64,000 bases of DNA from Minisyncoccota bacterium (GTDB taxonomy: Bacteria; Patescibacteriota; Minisyncoccia; UBA6257; UBA9933). The position numbers and the translations under genes were made by a program. The DNA lies in contig JBAZEU010000002.1 of the NCBI GenBank assembly GCA_041653755.1, forward strand, positions 16,707-80,706. The letters run 5' to 3'. The notes under the pieces were generated by a model, which was not told where the DNA came from, ran no database searches, and saw nothing but the letters and a program-made list of their open reading frames with translations. This document shows, in pieces, positions 2,483 through 61,821 of this stretch. Each line of letters opens with the position of its first letter. Position 1 is the first letter of the stretch.

Positions 2483-2833
2483 TTAATTTCTTTGGCTATT
2501 AATAAGTCCTAAAAGCATTTTTGATATAACTTCTAATTCTTTGTAAAAACCTTGAAATGTTTCTGTAGCGATTTGTTTTTCTTCGGAAATTATTTCCATC
2601 AAAGAGACGCATTCATAAACAGAGCCCCTAGCAATTGTATAAAAATTCTTTTTATCCGCTCTTGAAAATTTCCCGCTTCCCTCGGCTATATTTATTACCA
2701 TGCTAATGGAAGCTCTGCGTAGTTGATCACGGACATAAGAATCAATATGATTGTTATCTTTTAGGAATCTTAAAATCTTTTTATTCAGTTCTTTTGTCTT
2801 TTGATAAACGTTAAGATTTTCAAAATCAAACAT
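2483..2833 (-). CDS. four-helix-bundle protein (23S rRNA intervening-sequence protein family)
   Basis: 116 aa; FE-L-VYQK ... QLRRASIS--NIAEG-G ... IARGS--E pattern of the TIGR02436-type family. Confidence 0.8.
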   Translation of the reverse strand: MFDFENLNVYQKTKELNKKILRFLKDNNHIDSYVRDQLRRASISMVINIAEGSGKFSRADKKNFYTIARGSVYECVSLMEIISEEKQIATETFQGFYKELEVISKMLLGLINSQRN

Positions 2834-3066: not shown

Positions 3067-3137
3067 CGGAGAGTAGTATAATGGTAGTATTCGTGCTTTG
3101 GGAGCACGAGGCCCGGGTCCGATTCCCGGCTCTCCGA
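3067..3137 (+). tRNA. tRNA-Pro (anticodon TGG)
   Basis: Acceptor CGGAGAG/CTCTCCG, anticodon stem CGTGC/GCACG with loop TTTGGGA, T-loop GGTCCGATTCC. Confidence 0.75.
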
Positions 3138-3195
3138 CTCTTCAACGAATTCAGAGTCGTCCTGAACGAAGCCGAAGGACGACAAAAATAAAAAA

Positions 3196-3956: not shown

Positions 3957-4029
3957 GGAGACATTGGTGTAGTAGTAGCACAACAGTTTGTGGCACTGTT
4001 AGCAGGGGTGCAATCCCCCTATGTCTCCC
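3957..4029 (+). tRNA. tRNA-His (anticodon GTG) with encoded G-1
   Basis: Extra 5' G pairing with C73; anticodon stem ACAGT/ACTGT with loop TTGTGGC. Confidence 0.75.
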
Positions 4030-4072: not shown

Positions 4073-4370
4073 TAATTTGTATATGAAGATATTGTTATAC
4101 ATATTCAGCGGATGAAACACTCAGGCGTCTTATATTTTGCTTGAAGGTGTCCGCTAGATTGGCGGATTTTTTGTTGAAATGATGAACGGAAAGCTGTTTG
4201 AAAATTTAATAAAAGTTTTTATTCCGACTCGAGCGTGTGGAGTAAAAACTTTGCTAAGCATATATTTGTTATCTGTGCTTGGCACCCGAATTTGTTTCCG
4301 CCACATGCGGAGTAACAAATTCGGCAGAATAATATATTCGATATCTCGTTTCCTGAAAAATTTTAGGGAA

Positions 4371-7803
<3,433 letters not shown>

Positions 7804-7919
7804 TCCCTAAATTTTTCAGGAAACGAGAGAGCGAATATATTAAATTTTCAAACCAGAGCACAAAACAAGATTTTGTGCTCGGCCGAACACATAAAGATAT
7901 GTGCTCCGGTTTTAAAAAA

Positions 7920-19864: not shown

Positions 19865-20463
19865 AATTTTTTATCTAATATCAAATATTTTATGAATTCT
19901 TTTCCAAACTCAGTTACTTTCACAAAAGGAGCAGCGATAGGGCCAACTCTGGATGAGTAATCTGACATCAATATTCCAGCAGTGACTAAATCATAAACAA
20001 GTTCATTTTTATTTTTAGTCTGTTCATAAATTTGATGGAAATCAGTCTTAGAAGTATCTACATCTCTCAAGACTACAAAATCATCAGCATTCAGAATACT
20101 TAAGATATGATACATCCTTTCCAACTCAAATCTATTCTGGTTATCAGATTGAGCAAAGCCCAGAAAAATAGCTCGCATCATTTTTCTTTTTTCTTCGTTT
20201 TTTTCACGAATATATCTCTCCAGAGCATACACAAATCCATCTTGAAATTTCGCATCTCTAAGAATGATCTCGGTGAAAGCTGACGGATTATCCTTAACCA
20301 TCTCAACCCATTCAAGCGCTCTCTGCTCACGAAGTTTCAAGCCCGCACCATATAAAGCCTTACTTAGACCCCAGGCTATATTCAGCCCAGGCAACGCCGA
20401 AGCGATTTGATCAGCGATGACTAATGCGGAGTCTTTTATAATTTGTTTATCTTTTTCGTTCAT
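19861..20463 (-). CDS. hypothetical protein, partner of the Mrr-domain fusion protein
   Basis: 200 aa; start overlaps the upstream gene's stop by 4 nt; no recognisable domain. Confidence 0.55.
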   Translation of the reverse strand: MNEKDKQIIKDSALVIADQIASALPGLNIAWGLSKALYGAGLKLREQRALEWVEMVKDNPSAFTEIILRDAKFQDGFVYALERYIREKNEEKRKMMRAIFLGFAQSDNQNRFELERMYHILSILNADDFVVLRDVDTSKTDFHQIYEQTKNKNELVYDLVTAGILMSDYSSRVGPIAAPFVKVTEFGKEFIKYLILDKKL

Positions 20464-21968
20464 GACTTTTTATTTTTAGATTTCTCTCTTTCAATAACAA
20501 AATCGTAGGTTTTCTTAAACTCATAAACATTCAGGGTTGCCTTTTTATCTGCTTCTTGTCCGATCTGCCGTTCTATCATCCATTGTTCTTCAGGATTTTT
20601 CTTAAGATAGTCTCCTAATTTTTCGCTTTCTGCATGTGTAATTTGGAGATAATATTTTGTGCTGCCTTCAGCGTCTTTATTAAGAATTAAGACTACATCT
20701 TTTGGTTTTAAGAAATTATACCGACCATCACATTCATAAAGGGTATTAAATGATTCATTGCCATGTTTAAGCATGTTAAAATCTGGATCATTTAGGGTTA
20801 TTCCTTTTTCTTCATGAATCGTTCCGATGGTGGGACTTGGAAAAGATTCTGTAAATTTTTTTACACGCTTATAGCCATCCAGAGATTGCTGTCTTTTTTT
20901 AACCTCCAAATATTCATAAGTGCCAGCAATTGGGCCAGTCTTAAAATCAAAATCAACAAATATGTGCGGGAAGTTATGCCATCCATCACCCTTATCGTCT
21001 ATAACCAGCATCTCATCATATCGAATTAACCCGTTACTAAAAAATGTTGCCTGGTGGCGATGGGGCAAATGTTCCCAAAAATCTTCAACCTTATCACGGA
21101 TTTCCTGTTGTTTAGTTCTTTCTTCATGGGAGTCACTATCTCGAAAAACAAGATCGGCGACTCCCGTAAAATCAAACTCTTTCTTTTCTATATCGATATA
21201 AGCAAAATGCTTACGTAAATTTACTATGATTCCAAGAGGATGATATTGAATAAACCTGTATTCGCGCCATCGGGGATGTTCGCCAAAATCTTTATACCCA
21301 TTCTTGTAAGGATATTTCGAATCCTTTGAATCTCGAAGCAAAATTGATTTATAAAAGTCGTTACCCTCGCCGAATGTTCTGTATAACTTATTTTTGCATG
21401 CTACAACCTGCCTTATTTCCGTGGCCCGTGACCGTCTTTTACTAACTAACGAAATTCCAAAAAAGGTAAAAAGAATGCGATCATTTTTTGGGAGATAGAG
21501 CATATCCTCAAGCTCCGCCTTTCCCCAAAGATAAAATTCCATTACGCCTTTGTTCCGCAGCTCTTCTCGAAACGCATCATAAGAATCTTTGGAAAAATTT
21601 GAAGAAGCGGCCAGAATGTATCCGTATGGAGGATTTTTAGAATCAACATCAGAAAGAATTTCTTTTACTCGTTTCGGGCCTATTTCTTTCTCTCTTTTTC
21701 CTTGAATCATCCAAAGATTACCTTCCATAGGGTGTTTTTCTTCTGCCTCGTCACTTACCTCATCGTTTTCAGGCTGGGAATTTTTATAAACTTTTTCATG
21801 GGCGCGGATGTCAAAACCTTCGTCATTTCCGCTCCTGCCAGTTGCTTCGATAGTTTGCCAATCTTTGTAGTCGTAAATAAGCTCTCGAATTAAATCTTCG
21901 AATCGATGAGGGTCTAAATCTTCAAAATGTATTGGCCCGTATGTTCTTGTGACTCTTGATTTCGCCAT
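20460..21968 (-). CDS. Mrr-type restriction-endonuclease (PD-(D/E)xK) N-terminal domain fused to a large unknown C-terminal domain
   Basis: FEDLIRELIY ... TGRSGNDEGFDIRA ... LWMIQGKRE ... GYILAASSNFS matches the Mrr_cat core (D ... QxK); roughly 330 aa C-terminal region unrecognised; start at internal ATG MAKSRV. Confidence 0.65.
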   Translation of the reverse strand: MAKSRVTRTYGPIHFEDLDPHRFEDLIRELIYDYKDWQTIEATGRSGNDEGFDIRAHEKVYKNSQPENDEVSDEAEEKHPMEGNLWMIQGKREKEIGPKRVKEILSDVDSKNPPYGYILAASSNFSKDSYDAFREELRNKGVMEFYLWGKAELEDMLYLPKNDRILFTFFGISLVSKRRSRATEIRQVVACKNKLYRTFGEGNDFYKSILLRDSKDSKYPYKNGYKDFGEHPRWREYRFIQYHPLGIIVNLRKHFAYIDIEKKEFDFTGVADLVFRDSDSHEERTKQQEIRDKVEDFWEHLPHRHQATFFSNGLIRYDEMLVIDDKGDGWHNFPHIFVDFDFKTGPIAGTYEYLEVKKRQQSLDGYKRVKKFTESFPSPTIGTIHEEKGITLNDPDFNMLKHGNESFNTLYECDGRYNFLKPKDVVLILNKDAEGSTKYYLQITHAESEKLGDYLKKNPEEQWMIERQIGQEADKKATLNVYEFKKTYDFVIEREKSKNKKS

Positions 21969-21978
21969 ATTAAACTTG

Positions 21979-22167
21979 CTATTTGTTTTTCTTATTACTT
22001 GTCTTCTCCAAAAAAGCGTGCAAATCTGATTCCTTGATTCTCCAAACCCCAATCTTAGATGCCTTTAACTTTCCAGATTCAATATACCGAGTTACCGATC
22101 GACCACTGACTCTCAGGATTTTTGCTACTTCGGGAATCGTGAGAAGTTTTTCCATTTTGGAATTCAT
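21979..22167 (-). CDS. excisionase/AlpA-type helix-turn-helix DNA-binding protein
   Basis: 62 aa; LLTIPEVAKILRVSGRSVTRYIESGKL ... IGVWRIKESDL is a classic Xis-family HTH. Confidence 0.7.
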   Translation of the reverse strand: MNSKMEKLLTIPEVAKILRVSGRSVTRYIESGKLKASKIGVWRIKESDLHAFLEKTSNKKNK

Positions 22168-22199
22168 AAAATTTATTGACTATTGATACGTCCATTGTA

Positions 22200-22258
22200 G
22201 CTCTACAAATCTTTGTTGTCAAAGTTGGCATTTTTTGTCATAATGGAAATAAATTACA
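22200..22258 (+). promoter_or_regulatory. divergent promoter region (TTGTCA, 17 nt, CATAAT for the plus gene; TTGACT on the facing strand)
   Basis: Hexamers seen in the 97-nt divergent intergenic region. Confidence 0.35.
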
Positions 22259-22264
22259 ATTACT

Positions 22265-22897
22265 ATGAGCCTACCAAAAACAATTTCAGATATCATCAGG
22301 GCTATCCACGCCAAATTAGAGATTGCTCCAGAAAAAGATAGAATTATCGCTATTTCTCTGTGGGATTTCCAAGACCAAAGCGGAGACACCATACCCAAGG
22401 GTGACATGAAAAGTGGACTAAAAAAATTAGCAGAAGATGAAAAACTCTTTCAATTAAAAGACATCCGATGCCTTGATAAATTGGGAAGATTTTCTGGCGA
22501 AGAAATAAAGATCGAAATAGATCGTGAGCGATTTGTAAAATTCTACAAAAAACACCTCCAAGAACAAAAAGCTCCGATCGGTAATATTGAATTCTTAGAC
22601 GATGAGGCATTGTTAAAACTGGGGGATAAAAAATGTCCCTTACCGCCATATAAAAACGAGCACTTTTTCTGCCAAGCCGCTTTCGAGCATCCAATCAATG
22701 AGCCGATTGACTGGTCGATTATTTACGAAAAAATGACGGGCTATTATGAGAAACACTTTGGCAAAACAAAGGATACGAGAGAAAACTGGCATCAGGTATA
22801 CGACACGATGGAAGCAATCAATAAACGAGCGGAAGAATTATTGAATATAGAAAAGTTATTTGTTTGGCGGGAAAAATCGATAAAAAGAACCCGATAA
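22265..22897 (+). CDS. hypothetical protein
   Basis: 210 aa ORF; 9-bp inverted-repeat hairpin and a terminator downstream. Confidence 0.5.
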   Translation: MSLPKTISDIIRAIHAKLEIAPEKDRIIAISLWDFQDQSGDTIPKGDMKSGLKKLAEDEKLFQLKDIRCLDKLGRFSGEEIKIEIDRERFVKFYKKHLQEQKAPIGNIEFLDDEALLKLGDKKCPLPPYKNEHFFCQAAFEHPINEPIDWSIIYEKMTGYYEKHFGKTKDTRENWHQVYDTMEAINKRAEELLNIEKLFVWREKSIKRTR

Positions 22898-22956
22898 GCC
22901 AACAAAATCAATTGAGTCAACAAATTCTCAGTTGACTCACCCAGTGATTTTATAAA

Positions 22957-22989
22957 GTCAAAGCAGGATACGCTTTGGCTTTTTTAATT
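22957..22989 (+). terminator. rho-independent terminator
   Basis: caaagc/gctttg stem followed by gctttttt. Confidence 0.45.
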
Positions 22990-23011
22990 CGCCAGAGCTC
23001 CCACAAATTAT

Positions 23012-23296
23012 ATGTCCAAAAAATTATCCAAAAATGGGGAGCAAGAATACACGCCCGAAGACTACACAAAATATTTATCCACGTTTGATCTGGGAGCAGC
23101 CGCCTCACTGGTGTCGGCTGGTTTTGAGCTTGTCTCGCTGGATAAAACCAACCCCAGAAAAGTGCAGTTCATCTTTCGCCGAGTCATCGGCATTGAAAAG
23201 GTCGTTGATGATTACTGGTCAGATAAGCTCGAAGTTAAGGCACGATCATTCTTTGACAATGTGAAGATGCTAAAAAACCGAATCTATTCGGAATAG
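23012..23296 (+). CDS. DUF5659-like small protein (common in phage/plasmid/CPR mobile-element contexts)
   Basis: 94 aa; DLGAAASLVSAGFELVSL ... KVQFIF resembles the DUF5659 pattern. Confidence 0.45.
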   Translation: MSKKLSKNGEQEYTPEDYTKYLSTFDLGAAASLVSAGFELVSLDKTNPRKVQFIFRRVIGIEKVVDDYWSDKLEVKARSFFDNVKMLKNRIYSE

Positions 23297-23300
23297 GCCT

Positions 23301-23498
23301 ATGCTGTCGGACGAGCAAATTAAAAAATACCAGATGCTTCATAAGAATCGCTATGGCACAGAGATCAGCAGAGAAGAAGCATACACGAGAGGCGCACAGC
23401 TCCTCCGACTCATTGAACTTATTTACAAACCGATGACCGAAGAAGAATTCCAAAAACTTCAGGAGCGACGCAAGGAAACTGGCGACCTAAAAACCTAA
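23301..23498 (+). CDS. hypothetical small protein
   Basis: 65 aa, charged, helical. Confidence 0.4.
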   Translation: MLSDEQIKKYQMLHKNRYGTEISREEAYTRGAQLLRLIELIYKPMTEEEFQKLQERRKETGDLKT

Positions 23499-23509
23499 GT
23501 AAAAACATT

Positions 23510-25687
23510 ATGCAAGAATTACAAACAATTACCATTAAAGAATATTTATCCCGCAAAGGCGTTGCTTTTCGGGAGAGTGGCAATGAGCTCGTCGTTAAGT
23601 GCCTTTTTAATAACTGCGATAAAGATAGCCAATCAAACGAAGCTCACCTGTATTTTGATATTGCCACTGGCCAATACGAATGCAAGAAATGCGGCGAGAA
23701 AGGTAACCTCATAACGCTCGCAAAATATCTGGGGGATGATATAAGCGAGATCGCAATAAATCAGCGAGATTCAGCGATTAAGCCACGTCTCGCAAAATTT
23801 GGAGCTGTGTCGGCAGATGCCTGCCACTTGGCACTTACTCCCGATATCAGAAAGTATTTGAACGCCAGGGGCATTTCTGACCCCGTTGTGGACGCTTTCA
23901 AACTGGGCTGGGGAAAGTTCTACGGAAAATACTGGATTACCATACCCATAAAGAACATCTATGGGTCTTTTCAGTTTTTGAAATTACGCCAAGACCCGAA
24001 CGCTGGGAACGACAAAATGACTTATCCAAAAGGAATCGAGGCTCAGATTTACGGCTGGGAGATGCTGACGGAAAATCATGATCGGATAATAATCTGCGAA
24101 GGCGAGCTGGACAGGCTGGCTTTGCTCTCAAAAAATATTCCTGCCGTCACCTCAACGCATGGCGCACTGACCTTCAAAAAAGAATGGATAGAGAAAATCG
24201 GAAAAGGCAAAAAAATTTATATCTGCTACGACAACGACGAGGCTGGCAGAAAAGGATCGGAGCGGGTGGCAAAGTTGCTGGAAAATTCTGGCAATGAAAT
24301 CTTTATCGTTACGCTTCCAAACGAAGTCGGCGAAGGCGGAGACATTACTGACTACCTGGTAAAACTCAACGGCGATCCCGAAGATTTATTCAACAGATAC
24401 GCCAAACCCTATCCAGAGAAAATCGATGCCTCACAATTCAAACCATTAACCGCAAAAGAAATCGTTGAAACACTGGGATTGACTATAAAAAAAGATGAGG
24501 AAAATAAGCTGATAACATTTCTATGCGAGCTCTCGGCCTACACAGAAAACTCCCAGCTCAACATTTCTTTTAACGCCCCGTCATCAACAGGCAAGTCATA
24601 CATCCCAACTGAGATTGCCAGACTCTTTCCAGAAGACGATGTTATTGAAGTCGGTTACTGCAGCCCCACAGCATTTTTTCATGACGTGGGAGAATATGAC
24701 AAAGAAAGAAATGGCTACTTGGTAGACTTGAGTCGCAGGATTTTAATCTTTTTGGATCAGCCACACACCCTACTCCTTCAACACTTGAGGCCGCTACTTT
24801 CTCACGATAAAAAAGAAATTAGATTAAAAATCACTGATAAGTCTCAAAGAGCAGGCCTGAAAACCAAAAACATATTTCTCAGAGGATTCCCTGCGGTGAT
24901 TTTCTGCACGGCAGGACTGACGGCCGATGAACAGGAAGCAACTCGATTTATGCTCCTCTCTCCAGAAACCAATCAGGAAAAAATCAGGCAGGCAATCTAC
25001 GAAAAAATAAAGAAAGAAACCGATAGTCAGAAATACGAAAACCTACTGGAAGGGAACAAAGAAAGAAAATCCCTTAAAGAAAGAATACGAGCCATCAAAC
25101 TGGAAAACGTCAAGGGAATAAAAATAGGTTCACCAGAAGAATTAGAGAAGACGTTTTTCAGACAGAATAAAATGCTTAAACCAAGACACCAGCGAGACAT
25201 CGGCCGCATCATTTCTCTTGTCAAAGCATTTGCGCTATTGAATTTATGGTTTAGGGAAAGAGACGGGTCAATCATTGTTGCGAACGAAGATGATATCAAA
25301 GAAGCGTTCAACGTCTGGGATACGATTTCCGAGAGCCAAGAGCTCAATCTTCCGCCATATGTTTACAAGCTTTTTCAGGAAATAATAATCCCAGCATGGA
25401 ATGAAAAAAATCAAAGCCGAGACGAGTTTGAAAAAATCACGGGCCAGCTGGGATTAACCAGGCGAGAGATTCAGCGAAAACATGTTCAGGTTTATGGGAG
25501 AACGCTGGCCGACTGGTTTCTGCGCCAGCAAATTATTCCATTGCTTGAAAGCGCAGGATTGATCTGCCAAGAACCTGATCCGAATGATAAACGGAAAATG
25601 TTAATTTACCCCACCGCTCCACTCGGTAATTCAATAAGCCAAAACAATAGTGAGCCCAATGGTGGGGTAGAAAAATTAAGCCTATGA
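23510..25687 (+). CDS. primase-helicase: CHC2 zinc finger + DnaG-type TOPRIM + P-loop NTPase
   Basis: C-x5-C ... H ... C-x2-C zinc finger (KCLFNNCDKD ... HLYFD ... ECKKCGEKG); TOPRIM IIICEGELD and YICYDNDEAGRKG; Walker A FNAPSSTGKS and Walker B-like ILIFLDQPH. Confidence 0.8.
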   Translation: MQELQTITIKEYLSRKGVAFRESGNELVVKCLFNNCDKDSQSNEAHLYFDIATGQYECKKCGEKGNLITLAKYLGDDISEIAINQRDSAIKPRLAKFGAVSADACHLALTPDIRKYLNARGISDPVVDAFKLGWGKFYGKYWITIPIKNIYGSFQFLKLRQDPNAGNDKMTYPKGIEAQIYGWEMLTENHDRIIICEGELDRLALLSKNIPAVTSTHGALTFKKEWIEKIGKGKKIYICYDNDEAGRKGSERVAKLLENSGNEIFIVTLPNEVGEGGDITDYLVKLNGDPEDLFNRYAKPYPEKIDASQFKPLTAKEIVETLGLTIKKDEENKLITFLCELSAYTENSQLNISFNAPSSTGKSYIPTEIARLFPEDDVIEVGYCSPTAFFHDVGEYDKERNGYLVDLSRRILIFLDQPHTLLLQHLRPLLSHDKKEIRLKITDKSQRAGLKTKNIFLRGFPAVIFCTAGLTADEQEATRFMLLSPETNQEKIRQAIYEKIKKETDSQKYENLLEGNKERKSLKERIRAIKLENVKGIKIGSPEELEKTFFRQNKMLKPRHQRDIGRIISLVKAFALLNLWFRERDGSIIVANEDDIKEAFNVWDTISESQELNLPPYVYKLFQEIIIPAWNEKNQSRDEFEKITGQLGLTRREIQRKHVQVYGRTLADWFLRQQIIPLLESAGLICQEPDPNDKRKMLIYPTAPLGNSISQNNSEPNGGVEKLSL

Positions 25688-26376
25688 CGAGAGAAATAAT
25701 ACCAATTAAAAATAATAGCTTGAACCTCGACAACCCAGAGGATAGATTAATTTTTTACAAAGAAACCCTAAGCAAGATTACGAGCGTATTTTTTGACCCG
25801 CAAAAAATGGACGAAATCTATAAAGGGTTTGAAGAAATAGCAGAGCTTAGACGCAAGGCAAAAACAGAAAAAGAAGAAAAAGCACTAAACCAGAGATCGC
25901 TTAAACTAAGCCAGCAGGCCGCTCACATAAAATTGTATCCCTGGGAGAACCTGCTCCCGCTTGCCCTTAGCGGCAAAGAAGATATAACACCCGTCTCAGA
26001 AATGCGCAGCTCGCTCATTGACGAATACTGCCCGAAGACTCCAACCGAATTGGCCTTGATAGAAACCATCGCCATTGCCCATTATAACTTCATAAGAAAT
26101 ACGGGGGTTTTGAATACGCACCTGATGACCAAAGACGAAACTTCGAGAACGCTCCATTTTGACTCACTACAGATGAAAGCAGCAAAAGAAGCTGCAAAAG
26201 CCGTTGATCTTGCTTACAGGCAATTCACCAATTCAATTATGCTCCTGAAAGAACTGAGACAACCGAAATTAAATATCCATGTCAAAACCGAGAACGCTTA
26301 TCTTGCCAAAAATCAGCAGGTAATCAATGTCAAAAAATCAAACAGAAAAAAGGAGAAAATCATTAATGCCAAATGA
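25684..26376 (+). CDS. hypothetical protein
   Basis: 230 aa ORF translationally coupled to the primase. Confidence 0.5.
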   Translation: MTREIIPIKNNSLNLDNPEDRLIFYKETLSKITSVFFDPQKMDEIYKGFEEIAELRRKAKTEKEEKALNQRSLKLSQQAAHIKLYPWENLLPLALSGKEDITPVSEMRSSLIDEYCPKTPTELALIETIAIAHYNFIRNTGVLNTHLMTKDETSRTLHFDSLQMKAAKEAAKAVDLAYRQFTNSIMLLKELRQPKLNIHVKTENAYLAKNQQVINVKKSNRKKEKIINAK

Positions 26377-26707
26377 TTTCGGAAAAAAATATATGAGAAC
26401 CCTCATCGAACAATGCCAAAAAATCAATATCGACAGCCTGCTAAAAGACATAAAGGCCGAGATCAAGGAGTTGCGCCTGAAGATAAAGCTGAAGGAATTC
26501 GGACAGAAGATTGAAATAACTTCAACGCCTTGCTACTTCGGCGAAGAAAGATATTGGTTTATCTGCCCGAAATGCAGGAAACGAGCAGGAACTCTGTATA
26601 AGCCACCGACTCAAGACATCTTCCTTTGCCGAAAATGCCACGACTTAAAATACATGAGTTCCAGTCATCATCGAATGTTCGAAGAAAAATTAACCAAAGG
26701 CTTATAG
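26366..26707 (+). CDS. zinc-ribbon protein (C-x2-C ... C-x2-C)
   Basis: ATG after AAAAGGAG; CPKCRKR ... CRKCHD. Confidence 0.5.
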   Translation: MPNDFGKKYMRTLIEQCQKINIDSLLKDIKAEIKELRLKIKLKEFGQKIEITSTPCYFGEERYWFICPKCRKRAGTLYKPPTQDIFLCRKCHDLKYMSSSHHRMFEEKLTKGL

Positions 26708-26712
26708 CACAT

Positions 26713-26741
26713 TGAGAAATCAGACAAAATGAGGTAAAATA
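26713..26741 (+). promoter_or_regulatory. sigma70-type promoter
   Basis: TTGAGA, 17-nt spacer, TAAAAT. Confidence 0.5.
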
Positions 26742-26747
26742 TAATTG

Positions 26748-26896
26748 CGTCCTACAAGTTTGAATATCTGCACAGGGTGATTGCTTCTTTTGAAGCCCAA
26801 TTGCGGGCTGAAAGGGGCGACTATCCTCCACAATTGGTTGCCTTGTGCAATTCAATCTTGTGGGACGCAGGCTCTGGTCGTCCCTTTTTGTTTTAT
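26748..26896 (+). ncRNA. candidate small RNA or cis-regulatory leader (about 145 nt) with its own promoter and intrinsic terminator
   Basis: Promoter at 26713-26741; internal hairpins such as gcccaattgcgggc; terminator gggacg ... cgtccc plus tttttgttttattt at 26862-26896; no plausible ORF. Confidence 0.4.
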
Positions 26897-26961
26897 TTGA
26901 CTTCCTTAAACCTTTGGCCCATGTATGTGTGTAGAGCAATACAATTAAAAGTTTACATAAT

Positions 26962-27996
26962 ATGACAAGACCATTAAACACAAAAATATTAATATTAAGC
27001 ATTAGCGGAATAGTCCTGCTGACTTTGACGGCAATCGGGCTATTCGCATACTTCTCACTCTTTGGCGCACCGCAAACAAAAGCTGAGCCAGAAAGATTCA
27101 TCGTCTCAATGAATCAATCAAAACAAGACCTAATCGCAAAACTCCACGAGCAAGGATTTATCAAAAGCGAGTGGGGTTTTAATTATGCGCTTGAAGGAAA
27201 CGACATCCAGCCAGGCGGATACAAAATCTCAAAAAGCATGACGGCCTGGGAGATGGCGAAAGCACTTAAAGAACCTTACATGAAATGGGTCGTAATTCCC
27301 GAAGGATTAAGAAAAGAACAGATCGGAGAACTTATCGGTGATGCGCTTAGTTGGAACGAACAGCAAAAGAAAGACTGGGCCGTGAAGTATACAGCAATGG
27401 CTTACGACCAGCTGGAAGGCATTTACTTTCCTGACACATATCTCCTTCCGAAGGACGAAACAGTGCTCCAGATTTCTGATCGGCTGAGAGCTAAATTCAA
27501 TGAAAAATTTAAGCCTTATGCCAACAAATTTGTGACAGCTAATATCCAATGGACAACGGCATTAAAGCTTGCCTCAATCGTCCAAAGAGAAGCAGCTGGC
27601 AAGAGCGATATGCCACTCGTGGCAGGAATTCTCTGGAACAGATTATTAAAAGGAATGAAGCTCGAAGCTGACGACACAATCCAATACATCCGAGACGACG
27701 TGATCCATTACGGCGAAGCCAGATTTGATGCACAGCCAAAAAATTATACCAGCAAGGGAGATTGGTGGAAGCCAATAAAATTGGCCGATAAACAGATCGA
27801 GTCGCCTTATAACACATACAGAAATAAAGGACTTCCACCTCATCCAATCTGCAACCCAGGCCTGGATGCAATCGATGCGGTGTTAAACTCGGCCGACACT
27901 GAATGTCTTTATTATCTGCACGATTCAAGTGGACAAATTCACTGCGCCAAAACCTACGAGGAACACAAGGCCAACATTGAAAAATATTTGAAATAA
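26962..27996 (+). CDS. mltG: MltG/YceG-family endolytic transglycosylase (island copy)
   Basis: N-terminal TM, YceG-like domain; C-terminal YNTYRNKGLPPHPICNPG shared with the paralog at 40100. Confidence 0.75.
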   Translation: MTRPLNTKILILSISGIVLLTLTAIGLFAYFSLFGAPQTKAEPERFIVSMNQSKQDLIAKLHEQGFIKSEWGFNYALEGNDIQPGGYKISKSMTAWEMAKALKEPYMKWVVIPEGLRKEQIGELIGDALSWNEQQKKDWAVKYTAMAYDQLEGIYFPDTYLLPKDETVLQISDRLRAKFNEKFKPYANKFVTANIQWTTALKLASIVQREAAGKSDMPLVAGILWNRLLKGMKLEADDTIQYIRDDVIHYGEARFDAQPKNYTSKGDWWKPIKLADKQIESPYNTYRNKGLPPHPICNPGLDAIDAVLNSADTECLYYLHDSSGQIHCAKTYEEHKANIEKYLK

Positions 27997-27998
27997 CT

Positions 27999-29723
27999 AT
28001 GGAAAAGCCAGCTCAAAAAATTAAATACTTCCTCTACGCAAGAAAATCATCGGAGAGCGAGGATCGGCAGGTTCAATCCATTGATGACCAGATCGACCGC
28101 CTAAAAGAACTTGCCAGAGATTTGAGCTTGGATATCAAGAAAATATATAAGGAGTCGAAATCAGCAAAAAAGCCAGACAACAGGCCATTGTTTGACGAAA
28201 TGATTCAACGTATTGAAGAAGGTGAGGCTGACGGCATTTTATGCTGGCAAATTAATCGACTCTCAAGAAATCCTATTGATAGCGGAAAGCTAAGCTGGCT
28301 TTTGCAGCAGGGCACGCTTAAATCAATTCAGACCATAGATCGGCAATATCTTCCAGACGATAACGTTATTCTCTTCAGCGTTGAAAGCGGAACGGCCAAT
28401 CAATATATTCTTGATTTAAGAAAGAATGTAAAACGAGGCCAGGCATCAAAACTGGCCAGAGGTTGGATGCCCGCATGCGCTCCCCAGGGTTACTTAAACA
28501 GCAAGACAAAGGAAAAGGGAGATAACGATATTTTTAAAGACCCAGAACGCTTTCCGATGATACGGAGAATGTGGGATTTAATGCTGACAGGAAATTACAC
28601 ACCCCCTCAAATCGCAAAGATCGCGAACGAGCAATGGGGCTACACAACCAGAAAGACGAAACGATCTGGCGGTAATCCTCTATCAAAAAGTGGAATTTAC
28701 AGAATTCTCACAAACATTTTCTATACAGGAATTATTGATTACGGCGGCCAACAATACGAAGGCAAGCATGAACCGATAATCACACTTGAAGAATACGATC
28801 ACGTGCAGAAGCTTCTTGGGAGAAAAGGCAGACCCAGGGCAAAGAGTCATACCTTCGCCTTTACTGGCTCATTCCGCTGTGCTGAATGCGGTTGCCTTTA
28901 TACAGCCGAAGAAAAACAAAAGCTCATCAAGAAAACTGGCAAAATAAAGGAATACACCTATTATCACTGCACCCGACGCAGAGAAGATTATGATTGTTCG
29001 CAAAAGAAAAGCATCACGCTTGATGATTTGGAATTGAAGATTGAAAAAGAAATCGAGAAATACACGATTCTGCCAGAGTTTCTGCAGTGGGCACTGGAAG
29101 GCTTAAGCAAAAAGAACGACACAGAGATCGAGGACAGAACAAAGATTTACGAAATGCAACACAAAACACTCGTCCAAACTCAGAAAGAACTGGACGAGCT
29201 GACTAAAATGAGGTACCGCCAGCTCATTGATGACGAAACATTTGTCAAAGACAAAAACGAACTATCAACCAAAATCGCCCAATTGAAAAATAAGCTCAGG
29301 GAAACTGAGGCCAGGGCTGAACGCTGGCTTGAATTAACCGAAAATACTTTCAGCTTCGCTACTTACGCACGATCAGCATTTATTAAGGCCAGTGAAATAG
29401 GCAAGGCAGGGTTAGAACTGAAGAAAGAAATACTTCTGGCATTGGGCCAAAGCCCTAAAATTAAAGACGGAGAGCTCGTGATCGAGCCCAATGAATGGTT
29501 TGTGCCAATACAAAAAGGCTATCCTGCACTTGAAAAGAAATACTTAGCGTTAGAACCGACGAAATTGCCACTAAATAAAGCAAAAACAGAGGCTTTGGCC
29601 TCTGTTCGTGCACACTGGCGGAGAGGGAGGGATTCGAACCCTCGGGGCCCTTTCGAACCCAACATCTTAGCAGGATGCTGCTTTAAGCCACTCAGCCACC
29701 TCTCCTTGTTATATCTCGGTTAG
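27999..29723 (+). CDS. large serine recombinase (resolvase N-domain + recombinase domain + zinc ribbon); ORF reads into the tRNA-Ser 3' end
   Basis: YARKSSESEDRQVQSIDDQ with catalytic Ser; CWQINRLSRN (DRLSR-type); zinc ribbon CAECG ... HCTRRREDYDC; the last ~35 codons overlap the tRNA at 29616-29705. Confidence 0.8.
   Translation: MEKPAQKIKYFLYARKSSESEDRQVQSIDDQIDRLKELARDLSLDIKKIYKESKSAKKPDNRPLFDEMIQRIEEGEADGILCWQINRLSRNPIDSGKLSWLLQQGTLKSIQTIDRQYLPDDNVILFSVESGTANQYILDLRKNVKRGQASKLARGWMPACAPQGYLNSKTKEKGDNDIFKDPERFPMIRRMWDLMLTGNYTPPQIAKIANEQWGYTTRKTKRSGGNPLSKSGIYRILTNIFYTGIIDYGGQQYEGKHEPIITLEEYDHVQKLLGRKGRPRAKSHTFAFTGSFRCAECGCLYTAEEKQKLIKKTGKIKEYTYYHCTRRREDYDCSQKKSITLDDLELKIEKEIEKYTILPEFLQWALEGLSKKNDTEIEDRTKIYEMQHKTLVQTQKELDELTKMRYRQLIDDETFVKDKNELSTKIAQLKNKLRETEARAERWLELTENTFSFATYARSAFIKASEIGKAGLELKKEILLALGQSPKIKDGELVIEPNEWFVPIQKGYPALEKKYLALEPTKLPLNKAKTEALASVRAHWRRGRDSNPRGPFEPNILAGCCFKPLSHLSLLYLG
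29616..29705 (-). tRNA. tRNA-Ser (anticodon GCT), type II, CCA encoded
   Basis: Reverse complement GGAGAGGTGGCTGAGTGG ...; anticodon stem CATC/GATG with loop CTGCTAA; long variable arm; GGTTCGAATCC; ends CCA. Confidence 0.8.
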
Positions 29724-37183: not shown

Positions 37184-37187
37184 AACG

Positions 37188-37262
37188 CAGCCCCGACGGG
37201 ATTCGAACCCGTGTTACCAGGATGAAAACCTGGCGTCCTGGACCAGGCTAGACGACAGGGCC
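37188..37262 (-). tRNA. tRNA-Glu (anticodon TTC)
   Basis: Reverse complement GGCCCTGTCGTCTAGCCTGGTCCAGGAC ...; anticodon stem CCAGG/CCTGG with loop TTTTCAT; GGTTCGAATCC; acceptor has two G-U pairs. Confidence 0.7.
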
Positions 37263-37397
37263 CTAATAAAGCATCTTATCAAAAACATTCTCTTTCTTCA
37301 ACCGAAAAAATTTATTGACATGAAATTGAATAGATGATAATATTTTAACTTCAAGGATTTGTTGTTTTACATTTTTTATATTCTATGGAGGGAAGGC

Positions 37398-37571
37398 ATG
37401 AGCGGAACCTTTAATGAACTTCGGAGAGGAATTGCTAAAGAGCAATTCGGTTGTCAGTTTAGGCGTTTAAGTCCAGATCAACGAAAACAAGTGAAAGATC
37501 TAGCACGTAGAACGGTGGTTGAACGAGACCTTGCAATACGAAGCGTAAAAGACGGAGATAGAAAAAAATAA
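37398..37571 (+). CDS. hypothetical small protein (57 aa)
   Basis: ATG after GGAGGGAAGGC; basic helical peptide. Confidence 0.4.
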   Translation: MSGTFNELRRGIAKEQFGCQFRRLSPDQRKQVKDLARRTVVERDLAIRSVKDGDRKK

Positions 37572-37595: not shown

Positions 37596-37696
37596 GGGGC
37601 CTTAGCTCAGTGCTAGAGCGCCATGTTAAACCGTGATAAGAAGGATCACGGTTTGATTTATCGCGGAGGTCGTAGGTTGGATTCCTACAGGCTCCA
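37596..37696 (+). tRNA. atypical 101-nt tRNA-Ala-like gene with a 27-nt perfect hairpin inserted in the anticodon-arm region
   Basis: Acceptor GGGGCCT/AGGCTCC with G3-U70, D-arm GCTCAGTGCTAGAGC, GGAGGTC before T-arm GTAGG-TTGGATT-CCTAC (all Ala-like), but no canonical anticodon arm; 10-bp stem AAACCGTGAT/ATCACGGTTT with loop AAGAAGG at 37634-37660. Confidence 0.45.
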
Positions 37697-37700
37697 CTTC

Positions 37701-37773
37701 GCGGCCCTAACTCAACGGAAGAGTGCTCCTGACCAGGGAGAAGTTGCGGGTTCGAATCCCGTGGGCCCGACCA
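37701..37773 (+). tRNA. degenerate tRNA-like element with canonical T-arm and encoded CCA (identity undetermined; possible pseudogene)
   Basis: GCGGG-TTCGAAT-CCCGT T-arm, 3' GGGCCCG-A-CCA, D-arm ACTC-AACGGAA-GAGT, but acceptor positions 1-2 unpaired and no clean anticodon stem. Confidence 0.35.
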
Positions 37774-37785
37774 AGCCTCACATCA

Positions 37786-37812
37786 AAATATCGATGTGGG
37801 GCTTTTTACTTT
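37786..37812 (+). terminator. rho-independent terminator
   Basis: cctcacatc/gatgtgggg hairpin followed by ctttttactttttt. Confidence 0.6.
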
Positions 37813-37846
37813 TTACAGCCAACAATTTTTAATATAGAATCCTTTT

Positions 37847-38989
37847 ATGCTTAGTGACAAGAAATCCGCCAGCCGGCGGATGAAAATTCTAGCGATTGAA
37901 ACGTCTTGTGATGAAACAGCGGTCGCCCTGCTTGAGGCGAGCGGCGGAATAAATCCTTCGGTAAGCTCAGGACCGAAATTTAAAATTTTAGAAAATTTAG
38001 TTGCGTCTCAAATTAAAATTCATCAACCATTTGGAGGAGTAGTTCCTAATTTAGCAAAACGAGAACACCTCAAGAATTTGCCGATTTTATATCGACAAAT
38101 TCTTGCAAATTCTAAATCCGAAATTCTAAATTCTAAACAAATTAAAAATAAGATAAATCATAAATCAAAATTCGAAATTAAAAATTGTGACCTTATCGCC
38201 GTCACTGTCGGCCCCGGGCTTGAACCATGTTTGTGGACCGGAATAAATTTTGCGCAAGAACTCCATAAAAAATTCCTGCCTACCGGCAGGCAGGCAAAAT
38301 TAAAAACAAAAATTGTTGGAGCATCTCATCTTGAGGGACATTTATATTCATCTTTACTAAATCCGAAAAAGAAAATTCAATTCCCCGCGGTGGCTCTAAT
38401 CGTCAGCGGTGGCCATACGAGCTTGATATTTATGAAAGATCTAACGCATCTTAAAAAACTTGGCGAAACCCGCGATGACGCAGCTGGAGAATCATTTGAT
38501 AAAGTGGCGCGATTATTAAAACTTCCTTATCCCGGCGGCCCGGAAATCGAAAAAATAGCGAAGAAAGGGGATTCGAACGCAATTAATTTTCCCCGACCGA
38601 TGCTTAACCAAAAAAATTATGATTTCAGCTTCTCCGGCCTTAAAACATCGGTTTTATATTATTTGAGAGATAATAAAGCGTTAATTAGTAATGTGGCAGC
38701 TTCGTTTCAAGAGGCTGCTTTTGACGTTTTAATCAAAAAAACCTTGAGAGCAGTTAGGGAGTTTGGCGCTAAAACAATTGTAGTCACCGGCGGCGTGGCA
38801 GCCAATAAAACCTTAGGGCAGATGTTTAAAAAAGCCGTCAAAAAGAATAAAATGAAAATAGGCTTAGTCATACCTGAAATAAAATTCTGCACTGATAATG
38901 CTGCTATGATTGCCGTCAGTGCGTATATTAATTATTTACGAAATAAAAAGTACAAATTGATTGCTAATTCGAATATAAACATTTCTTAA
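37847..38989 (+). CDS. tsaD: tRNA N6-adenosine threonylcarbamoyltransferase TsaD (with a lineage-specific insertion)
   Basis: ILAIETSCDETAVAL N-terminus; Kae1/YgjD-type motifs SGGV, GPGLEPCLWTG, FSGLKT. Confidence 0.8.
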   Translation: MLSDKKSASRRMKILAIETSCDETAVALLEASGGINPSVSSGPKFKILENLVASQIKIHQPFGGVVPNLAKREHLKNLPILYRQILANSKSEILNSKQIKNKINHKSKFEIKNCDLIAVTVGPGLEPCLWTGINFAQELHKKFLPTGRQAKLKTKIVGASHLEGHLYSSLLNPKKKIQFPAVALIVSGGHTSLIFMKDLTHLKKLGETRDDAAGESFDKVARLLKLPYPGGPEIEKIAKKGDSNAINFPRPMLNQKNYDFSFSGLKTSVLYYLRDNKALISNVAASFQEAAFDVLIKKTLRAVREFGAKTIVVTGGVAANKTLGQMFKKAVKKNKMKIGLVIPEIKFCTDNAAMIAVSAYINYLRNKKYKLIANSNINIS

Positions 38990-53717: not shown

Positions 53718-53792
53718 GGGTGCGTAGTTCAGTGGTAGAACGCTGTCCTGATAAGACAGAGGTCGAAGGTCCGATTCCTTCCGCACCCACCA
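53718..53792 (+). tRNA. tRNA-Ile (anticodon GAT), CCA encoded
   Basis: Acceptor GGGTGCG/CGCACCC; anticodon stem CTGTC/GACAG with loop CTGATAA. Confidence 0.8.
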
Positions 53793-53793
53793 A

Positions 53794-53865
53794 GGGCGTT
53801 TAGCTCAGTGGTAGAGCGTTTCATTGACATTGAAAAGGTCAGAGGTCCGATCCCTCTAACGCCCA
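53794..53865 (+). tRNA. tRNA-Val (anticodon GAC)
   Basis: Acceptor GGGCGTT/AACGCCC; anticodon stem TTTCA/TGAAA with loop TTGACAT. Confidence 0.75.
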
Positions 53866-53893
53866 CAAAATCCCGATGTAGCGGGATTTTTTG
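53866..53893 (+). terminator. rho-independent terminator
   Basis: atcccg-atgtag-cgggat hairpin plus a T6 run. Confidence 0.65.
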
Positions 53894-61745: not shown

Positions 61746-61816
61746 GGGCCCATAGTTAAGTGGTAGAACACCTCATTTGCAATGAGGAGACGGCAGTCCG
61801 ATTCTGCCTGGGTCCA
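61746..61816 (+). tRNA. tRNA-Ala (anticodon TGC)
   Basis: Acceptor GGGCCCA/TGGGTCC with G3-U70; anticodon stem CCTCA/TGAGG with loop TTTGCAA. Confidence 0.75.
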
Positions 61817-61821
61817 CATCG

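Follow-up and report, generated by a model that had tools for sequence, protein, structure and literature searches.

Tandem tRNA-like genes with non-canonical anticodon loops upstream of tsaD in a Patescibacteria bacterium

Two systems described in other bacteria provide the background for the locus presented here. tRNAOther of Bacillus cereus is a pseudo-tRNA, or tRNA-like small RNA, that acts outside translation (PMC3399842). Like the pair of genes discussed below it is a tRNA-derived chromosomal gene without conserved tRNA features, and the cell can do without it; the ribosome makes no use of it, and its own role lies elsewhere than in translation. In Staphylococcus aureus, non-proteogenic tRNAGly isoacceptors donate glycine to FmhB, FemA and FemB (PMC7826273). 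These are additional tRNAs for a small amino acid. Their D and T regions are altered, and they are led away from EF-Tu and the ribosome; in these respects they resemble the role that we propose for one gene of the pair.

The locus lies in a stretch of 64,000 nucleotides (hereafter the window, whose coordinates are used throughout) from a Patescibacteria (CPR) bacterium near Wolfebacteria/Paceibacterota, MAGs of those groups giving the best TsaD matches (60-67% identity). Two tRNA-like genes stand there head-to-tail on the plus strand, 4 nt apart, exactly where the initial annotation had placed them: element 1 at 37596-37696 and element 2 at 37701-37773. The identical sequence is present in an independent JGI contig (L051/L066), and an assembly artefact can therefore be excluded. 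The features of the locus are as follows.

37187-37262, minus strand: ordinary tRNA-Glu(UUC), the conserved left neighbour, which adjoins tsaD directly in the closest relatives
37315-37343, plus strand: promoter-like site (TTGACA, 17 nt, TG-extended TAATAT), a 10/12 match in a consensus scan
37398-37571, plus strand: orphan 57-aa ORF with a GGAGGG Shine-Dalgarno sequence, encoding a basic protein predicted to form a two-helix hairpin
37596-37696, plus strand: element 1, an alanine-identity tRNA-like gene with no encoded CCA (Rfam tRNA score 45.6 bits; stem table)
37613, plus strand: C19 in the D-loop AGUGCUA of element 1, its partner being G56 (37679) in the T-loop UUGGAUU
37625-37657, plus strand: 13-bp hairpin with G.U pairs and a 7-nt purine loop, AAGAAGG, found by folding
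37701-37773, plus strand: element 2, a degenerate tRNA-like gene with an encoded CCA (Rfam tRNA score 34.0 bits; stem table)
37773-37814, plus strand: intrinsic terminator (stem 37773-37804, 11-12 bp, then a T-run; z-score -6.9), which closes the unit
37880-38989, plus strand: tsaD (t6A37 synthase subunit; Pfam TsaD 1e-79), the conserved right neighbour

The flanking genes have core functions (recG, a GT2 glycosyltransferase, tRNA-Glu, tsaD, ftsW/rodA, mltG and rpoB). Judging by its homologues, tsaD probably starts at the ATG at 37880 and not at the annotated 37847, since the latter adds 11 residues that are missing from all homologues, which align from query residue 12. The 5' extension (37847-37881) contains the palindrome ATCCGCCAGCCGGCGGAT, which scores as a minus-strand terminator. 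A 69-aa ORF (37623-37832, plus strand) that crosses both tRNA-like genes and the terminator is almost certainly spurious, but an annotation could list it as a gene. Elsewhere in the window, a mobile-element-like island (20463-29723) carries an Mrr-type nuclease, a Toprim/primase-like protein, a second YceG/MltG copy and a large serine recombinase, the 3' end of which overlaps tRNA-Ser(GCU) (29616-29705). This serine recombinase/Toprim/Mrr island lies 8-15 kb upstream of the tRNA-like pair and does not adjoin it.

The score of element 1 against the Rfam tRNA model (E 1.7e-6 for the whole window) compares with a gathering score of 29 bits and with 52-73 bits for the window's 16 ordinary tRNAs. 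An explicit stem parse finds 20/21 of its stem pairs intact. The acceptor is perfect (GGGGCCU/AGGCUCC), with G3 (37598) opposite U70 (37693) and with A73, and is accompanied by a D arm, GCUC-AGUGCUA-GAGC, a variable loop, AGGUC, and a T arm, GUAGG-UUGGAUU-CCUAC. The 7-bp acceptor, 4-bp D and 5-bp T stems and the 7-nt T-loop are those of a canonical tRNA, and direct reading shows all of the core nucleotides to be present (U8, A14, G15:C48, G18, A21, U54:A58 and G53:C61). The parse thus bears out the earlier description of nearly complete tRNA-Ala features, including the acceptor with G3-U70, the D arm and the 5-bp T arm.

The anticodon arm is a different matter. Between G26 and A44, where positions 27-43 usually take up 17 nt, element 1 has 46 nt, that is, 29 extra. 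The long insertion had been recognized before, although the figure of about 52 nt then given included position 26 and the variable loop. A weak anticodon stem (CCAUG/CGCGG), in which one position is an A.C mismatch, closes around 36 nt, and in place of a 7-nt loop with U33 and a 3-nt anticodon this 'loop' forms the 13-bp hairpin listed above. The perfect 10-bp core of the hairpin (37628-37654) had been identified correctly, and G.U pairs extend it to the full 13 bp. Stacked on the residual anticodon stem, the hairpin makes an irregular helix of ~17 bp that ends in a purine-rich 7-nt loop without U33. The cloverleaf with this long arm folds at -39.6 kcal/mol, as against an MFE of -42.8 kcal/mol, and the z-score of the fold is -4.8. 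A repeated or mobile hairpin as the source of the insert was rejected, as the 27-mer of the core occurs only once in the window; none of the loci compared has a homologue of the hairpin that could be used for a covariation test. ARAGORN leaves element 1 uncalled in its default mode. Its intron mode, which the initial annotation had named as a check, returned no ordinary call either, only a forced and arbitrary 'tRNA-Asn(att)' with a 29-nt intron at 33/34. The earlier statement that deletion of the hairpin does not restore an alanine anticodon also stands, and it holds for any removal of the insert.

The elbow of element 1 is altered as well. The 19:56 pair forms the exposed face of the elbow and stabilises the tRNA L-shape (PMC4810234). 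In element 1 the universal G19:C56 is replaced by C19:G56, a swap in which pairing is compensated, and among 47 distinct tRNA or tRNA-like genes of the window and related loci C19 and G56 are found only here; element 2, in contrast, has the canonical G18 G19 and C56. Among the ordinary genes of the window, tRNA-His(GUG) (3958-4029, plus strand) has the D-loop AGUAGUA and the T-loop UGCAAUC, so that A18/G55 replaces the conserved G18/U55 tertiary pair. In addition, four ordinary tRNAs (Pro, Ile, Val and Ala; 3067-3138, 53718-53792, 53794-53866 and 61746-61817) share the T-loop UCCGAUY, in which position 55 is C and not the near-universal U (pseudouridine-55). The last position is that of the normal tRNA-Ala(UGC), whose reported presence at 61746 we can confirm.

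The determinants recognized by bacterial AlaRS are A73, G2-C71, G3.U70 and G4-C69, none of them in the anticodon (PMC9976931). Element 1 has all four and, going by these nucleotides, is probably alanine-accepting. Its CCA is not encoded, which is also the case for 13/16 of the ordinary tRNA genes in the window, and its sequence is closer to the general bacterial tRNA-Ala consensus than to the host's own tRNA-Ala. Element 2, with G3-C70, does not carry the full set.

In element 2, the D arm, T arm and core are canonical (A15:U48, G18 G19, UUCGAAU), and 19/21 stem pairs are intact. The perfect T-arm, the D-arm and the frayed acceptor noted earlier are all there, but the supposed lack of a clean anticodon stem is not: a clean 5-bp stem (C-G, U-A, C-G, C-G, U.G) closes a loop, GACCA, that has 5 nt and not 7, and it is this loop that is defective. 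An alternative parse has a 4-bp anticodon stem and a 7-nt loop with G33, which is not a canonical anticodon arm. In the acceptor, the mismatches G1.G72 and C2.C71 leave 5/7 pairs, followed by A73 and an encoded CCA; when two upstream nucleotides are included, folding allows an 8-bp acceptor with C2 bulged. ARAGORN calls element 2 as 'tRNA-Gly(acc)', only by way of a shifted acceptor register. Because of G3:C70 and the broken acceptor top, element 2 lacks alanine identity, and it is improbable that any synthetase uses it well; its sequence suggests that it is probably uncharged.

The terminator that had been seen to follow the pair is indeed present (37773-37804 and the T-run). The promoter-like site at 37315-37343, a consensus match only, is the one good candidate promoter for the orphan ORF and the two elements, and the ORF is possibly co-transcribed with the pair. 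The 57-aa product has a sole match among 5.8 billion proteins, namely itself, and belongs to no Pfam or PHROG family. Its AlphaFold model consists of 2 helices (pLDDT 79), and a structure search returned no fold match with E<1.

We surveyed synteny at 50 tsaD loci from GTDB genomes and 13 contigs reached via close TsaD homologues, and found a related element in one of them only (L001; TsaD 66% identity), where a tRNA-like gene lies upstream of tsaD in the same position and orientation as the window module. This L001 element has the acceptor GCGGCCU/AGGCUGC (G3:U70, A73), an 11-nt D-loop, C55, a promoter-like site of its own, ACCA and a terminator. It scores 52.0 bits with the Rfam tRNA model and has 21/21 stem pairs. 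With regard to AlaRS it has G3.U70, A73 and G4-C69, but C2-G71. Its 5-bp anticodon stem carries a 6-nt loop, UUACAA, which is real, since the element is identical base-for-base in 6 independent assemblies. All three members thus have non-canonical anticodon loops (36 nt in element 1, 5 nt in element 2 and 6 nt in the L001 element), with 60/63 stem pairs intact across the set.

Element 2 and its terminator align with the L001 element and its terminator, while the flanking intergenic DNA is unalignable. On this alignment, element 2 and the L001 element are homologous, terminators included. They differ by four double compensatory changes (7:66, 10:25, 28:42 and 29:41) and by further single changes that preserve pairing, and the terminator stem likewise shows compensatory C-G/U-A changes. 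In simulations of random substitution, the pairing retained by the L001 element had P = 3e-4 in the comparison with element 2 and P = 1.5e-4 in that with element 1. At the level of sequence, this shows selection for tRNA shape during the divergence; it says nothing about the timing of anticodon-loop loss. By stem-table count, the L001 element is ~74% and ~67% identical to elements 1 and 2, respectively, and these are 59% identical to each other. The L001 element is thus intermediate between the two, which would fit a tandem duplication in the lineage of the window.

In the three closest relatives (TsaD 79, 74 and 72% identity), tRNA-Glu(-) directly adjoins tsaD, and the ~580-nt module made up of the orphan ORF, elements 1 and 2 and the terminator is missing, which makes the module lineage-specific. 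It is also missing from ~58/60 related tsaD loci, and these absences together mark it as dispensable. In the comparison of orthologous loci proposed in the initial annotation, the module is missing in the closest relatives and element 2 has a homologue in L001. Other relatives have tRNA-Glu(+), tRNA-Ala(CGC) or tRNA-Val at the same site, and the ordinary tRNA-Ala(CGC) or tRNA-Glu genes among these indicate that tRNA genes turn over upstream of tsaD. The Rfam tRNA model revealed no further cryptic tRNA-like genes in 37 loci, the calls that ARAGORN made in its intron and relaxed modes in the window and 60 loci were all arbitrary or false, without another tRNA that bears a hairpin, and no intact orthologue of this type of tRNA-like sequence was found in ~60 loci.

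Partial tRNA-like segments were seen upstream of tsaD at two other loci. In L006 (700-815), two repeated units lie between a normal tRNA-Ala(CGC) and tsaD, each consisting of TCTAACGGGGCAAGTTG and then a T-arm and acceptor 3' half (…GGTTCGATTCCCGGTGAGTCCA); these may be att-type duplications of a tRNA 3' half. In L014 (3910-3980), an extra T-arm, acceptor 3' strand and ACCA (CTCGGGTTCGAATCCCGATGGGAGCACCA) without a proper 5' half follow tRNA-Glu, and this segment is a partial tRNA-Glu-like duplicate.

A metagenome scan for the C19 D-arm returned the organism's own sequence and one CRISPR spacer, and nothing more. The spacer, TTGGGGCTTAGCTCAGTGCTAGAGCGCCGGATTAA (about 2938-2972), belongs to an array of ~39 repeats, GTTTCAATGCACTTCGTGCTTTCAGGTCTGTGATCAC, in an unrelated metagenome contig (L052; Ga0247727_10088498). 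It matches the 5' half of an element-1-type tRNA-Ala-like gene, and the match covers both the rare AGTGCTA (C19) D-loop and the UUAA after the anticodon-stem strand. This sequence match hints that element-1-type genes occur elsewhere, possibly on mobile DNA. In IMG/VR, four element-1 patterns had no match; a fifth hit a tRNA-Gly(UCC)-like phage gene, which is unrelated and has only the 5' 16-mer in common with the L001 element. Such a gene, with the non-canonical T-loop AUCGGUA and uncalled by ARAGORN, lies in a phage tRNA cluster at 770-842 of L068 and 651-723 of L069. Blastn against a phage collection gave generic tRNA T-arm matches only, and a literature search found no CPR tRNA introns or tRNA-like RNAs.

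Our preferred reading, to which we would give not quite an even chance, is that elements 1 and 2 are tRNA-derived RNAs unable to decode and that element 1 probably accepts alanine. Neither RNA could decode because the anticodon loop has been lost while the tRNA L-shape is kept. Of the three possibilities offered in the initial annotation, a tRNA-derived structured RNA is the best supported. Based on our analysis we can present a rough proposal. A small lineage-specific transcription unit would run from the promoter-like site through the 57-aa ORF, element 1, the 4-nt spacer and element 2 with its CCA to the terminator; the promoter-like site and the strong terminator that bracket the unit are in line with such RNAs being made from it. 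Element 1 would be cut out by RNase P and a 3' nuclease, would receive its CCA from the CCA-adding enzyme and would be alanylated by AlaRS, which ignores the anticodon. Once charged, it would be kept out of productive decoding and could give its alanine to a non-ribosomal reaction, or act on tRNA-binding factors as their decoy or regulator. Element 2 may assist in structure or processing by contributing the 3' end and the terminator, or it may be a more decayed paralogue. A Pfam search found no aminoacyl-tRNA-dependent transferase of the Fem/MurM or MprF type among 23 window proteins scanned. Several observations stand against this proposal. The three members have three different anticodon-loop lesions and no shared new feature, as relaxed constraint would give; the compensatory changes could predate the loss of ordinary tRNA status; and the acceptor top of element 2 is broken and the module dispensable.

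The main alternative, which we regard as a real possibility even though our judgement leans against it, is that the elements are young, decaying pseudogenes: a redundant tRNA gene, or two such genes in tandem, in front of tsaD would have been inactivated by anticodon-loop lesions, with the cloverleaf otherwise intact. The cell could do without a gene of this kind, since tRNA-Ala(UGC) reads every GCN codon. Such decay would fit the lack of the module in the nearest relatives, the ordinary tRNA-Ala(CGC) or tRNA-Glu at the same position elsewhere, the two acceptor mismatches and near-threshold 34 bits of element 2, the separate loop defect in each copy and the orphan status of the adjoining ORF. 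However, it would require three independent lesions confined to the anticodon loop while 60/63 stem pairs and all core tertiary nucleotides stayed intact, and the double change to C19:G56 restores pairing. Moreover, an anticodon-defective homologue persists in L001 across 66% TsaD identity, a distance at which neutral intergenic DNA no longer aligns, and ~60 loci have yielded no intact orthologue of the sequence type. Small CPR genomes are expected to purge non-functional DNA fast, which we also count against decay. The initial annotation had suggested pseudogenes left at an old integration site, and this is half right at most: the lineage-specific distribution of the module agrees with it, but the lack of att-like direct repeats flanking the module, the core-gene neighbours and the compensatory changes in the stems do not. 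We rejected an att site or integration remnant as such, there being no flanking direct repeats and no adjoining integrase, with the recombinase 8 kb away. A chimera formed by inversion with tRNA-Glu was also rejected: the only T-arm repeat, 19 nt long and inverted, corresponds to the common tRNA-Glu T-arm, and a recombinant would not have these acceptor strands.

Import of the ORF and tRNA-like module as cargo or remnant of a mobile element or phage, with the RNAs serving that element, for example as decoys against tRNA-targeting defences, is improbable in our view. The module is an indel relative to close relatives and comes with an orphan ORF, a CRISPR spacer matches the 5' half of an element-1-type gene, and element 1 is nearer the general tRNA-Ala consensus than the host's tRNA-Ala; but no integrase or mobile gene adjoins the module, the island described above lying 8-15 kb off, direct repeats do not flank it, and IMG/VR and the phage collection returned no match to the four element-1 patterns and generic tRNA sequence, respectively. 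CRISPR spacers may, besides, also target symbiont chromosomes, and the shared chromosomal position and orientation of the L001 homologue favours vertical descent. That element 1 might instead be a true decoding tRNA with a short intron or intervening sequence, excised like the insertions in CPR rRNAs, we consider barely credible. The genome does have a 23S rRNA with large insertions (4362-7813; 3452 nt vs a 2925-nt model; no 16S gene lies ahead of it in the window) and encodes a protein of the 23S-IVS type (a 116-aa ORF near the 23S gene, 2483-2833, minus strand; PF05635, the 23S rRNA intervening-sequence protein, in the identical contig L067), and ARAGORN can be made to call a 29-nt 'intron'. 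Like intron-containing tRNAs, whether archaeal with a bulge-helix-bulge or bacterial with a group I intron, element 1 has extra sequence inside the anticodon loop. Unlike them it has no bulge-helix-bulge, a motif ruled out because both bulges are on the 3' strand, and no group I fold, the 29-nt insert being far below group I intron size; nor does any excision leave a functional loop, restoring an alanine anticodon, U33 or a sensible 7-nt loop. The forced ARAGORN solution would place the anticodon AUU on a tRNA of alanine identity, which would mistranslate. Rfam at E<=10 returned tRNA and nothing else for the region, with no ribozyme or intron family, no such insert occurs in other tRNAs of the window or ~60 loci, and removal of an IVS in the manner of RNase III leaves fragments and not a religated loop. 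The intron-containing tRNA suggested at the outset is hence not borne out: there is no intron family, no bulge-helix-bulge and no excision that yields an alanine anticodon.

If elements 1 and 2 are indeed tRNA-derived RNAs barred from decoding, a broader suggestion can be made, which we put forward tentatively and think rather unlikely as it stands. Patescibacteria may keep a small family of tRNA-shaped RNAs of alanine identity (G3:U70) that do not decode and are dedicated to a role away from decoding. Its members would be element 1, the L001 element and the source of the CRISPR protospacer, and the same doubt covers this membership together with the family itself. In such RNAs the anticodon loop would be gone or a long helix would stand in its place, and the elbow pair that faces the ribosome would, in element 1, be inverted. 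The role could again be that of a non-ribosomal alanine donor, or of a decoy or regulator for tRNA-binding enzymes.

Were the pair functional, it would provide a natural bacterial RNA that is fit for tRNA maturation and alanine charging yet structurally barred from decoding, and the compensated inversion of G19:C56 would offer a natural test of the purpose for which the elbow pair is read. The long-arm design would also point to an unrecognised tRNA-dependent process in CPR, the cell-wall and quality-control biology of which is poorly known. If the genes are pseudogenes, the locus is a mere snapshot of tRNA gene turnover upstream of tsaD. For annotation, default tRNA finders either overlook element 1 or give the pair wrong names, tRNA-Gly(acc) or tRNA-Asn(att). 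The initial annotation had itself missed the C19:G56 swap, the clean anticodon stem of element 2, the L001 homologue and the fact that the nearest relatives do not have the module.

Compared with known systems, element 1 shares with the tRNA-like domain of tmRNA the G3:U70 alanine identity, the T-arm and a long helix in the place of the anticodon arm, and that domain is charged by AlaRS without an anticodon, as predicted for element 1. However, tmRNA is ~350 nt long and contains pseudoknots and a tag reading frame, and its D region is reduced, whereas element 1 has 101 nt, a full D-arm, no tag ORF and no Rfam tmRNA match. We rejected a tmRNA, since neither Rfam nor ARAGORN calls one in the region; the tmRNAs of relatives (L025, L035 and L038) are readily detected with the same tools. 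The S. aureus tRNAGly isoacceptors have a normal anticodon arm with a Gly anticodon, and the Fem transferases that they serve are known, unlike the situation here, where the anticodon is unusable and 23 window proteins scanned include no enzyme of the Fem type. tRNAOther has a normal anticodon loop with the Trp anticodon CCA, acts via a T-box and borders a genomic island, and its charging with Lys is poor. The pair described here differs in that the anticodon loop is abolished or replaced, the identity is that of alanine, and neither a T-box nor an island adjoins it. By analogy, tRNAOther and the S. aureus tRNAGly are the closest counterparts of these genes, and both retain normal anticodon arms.
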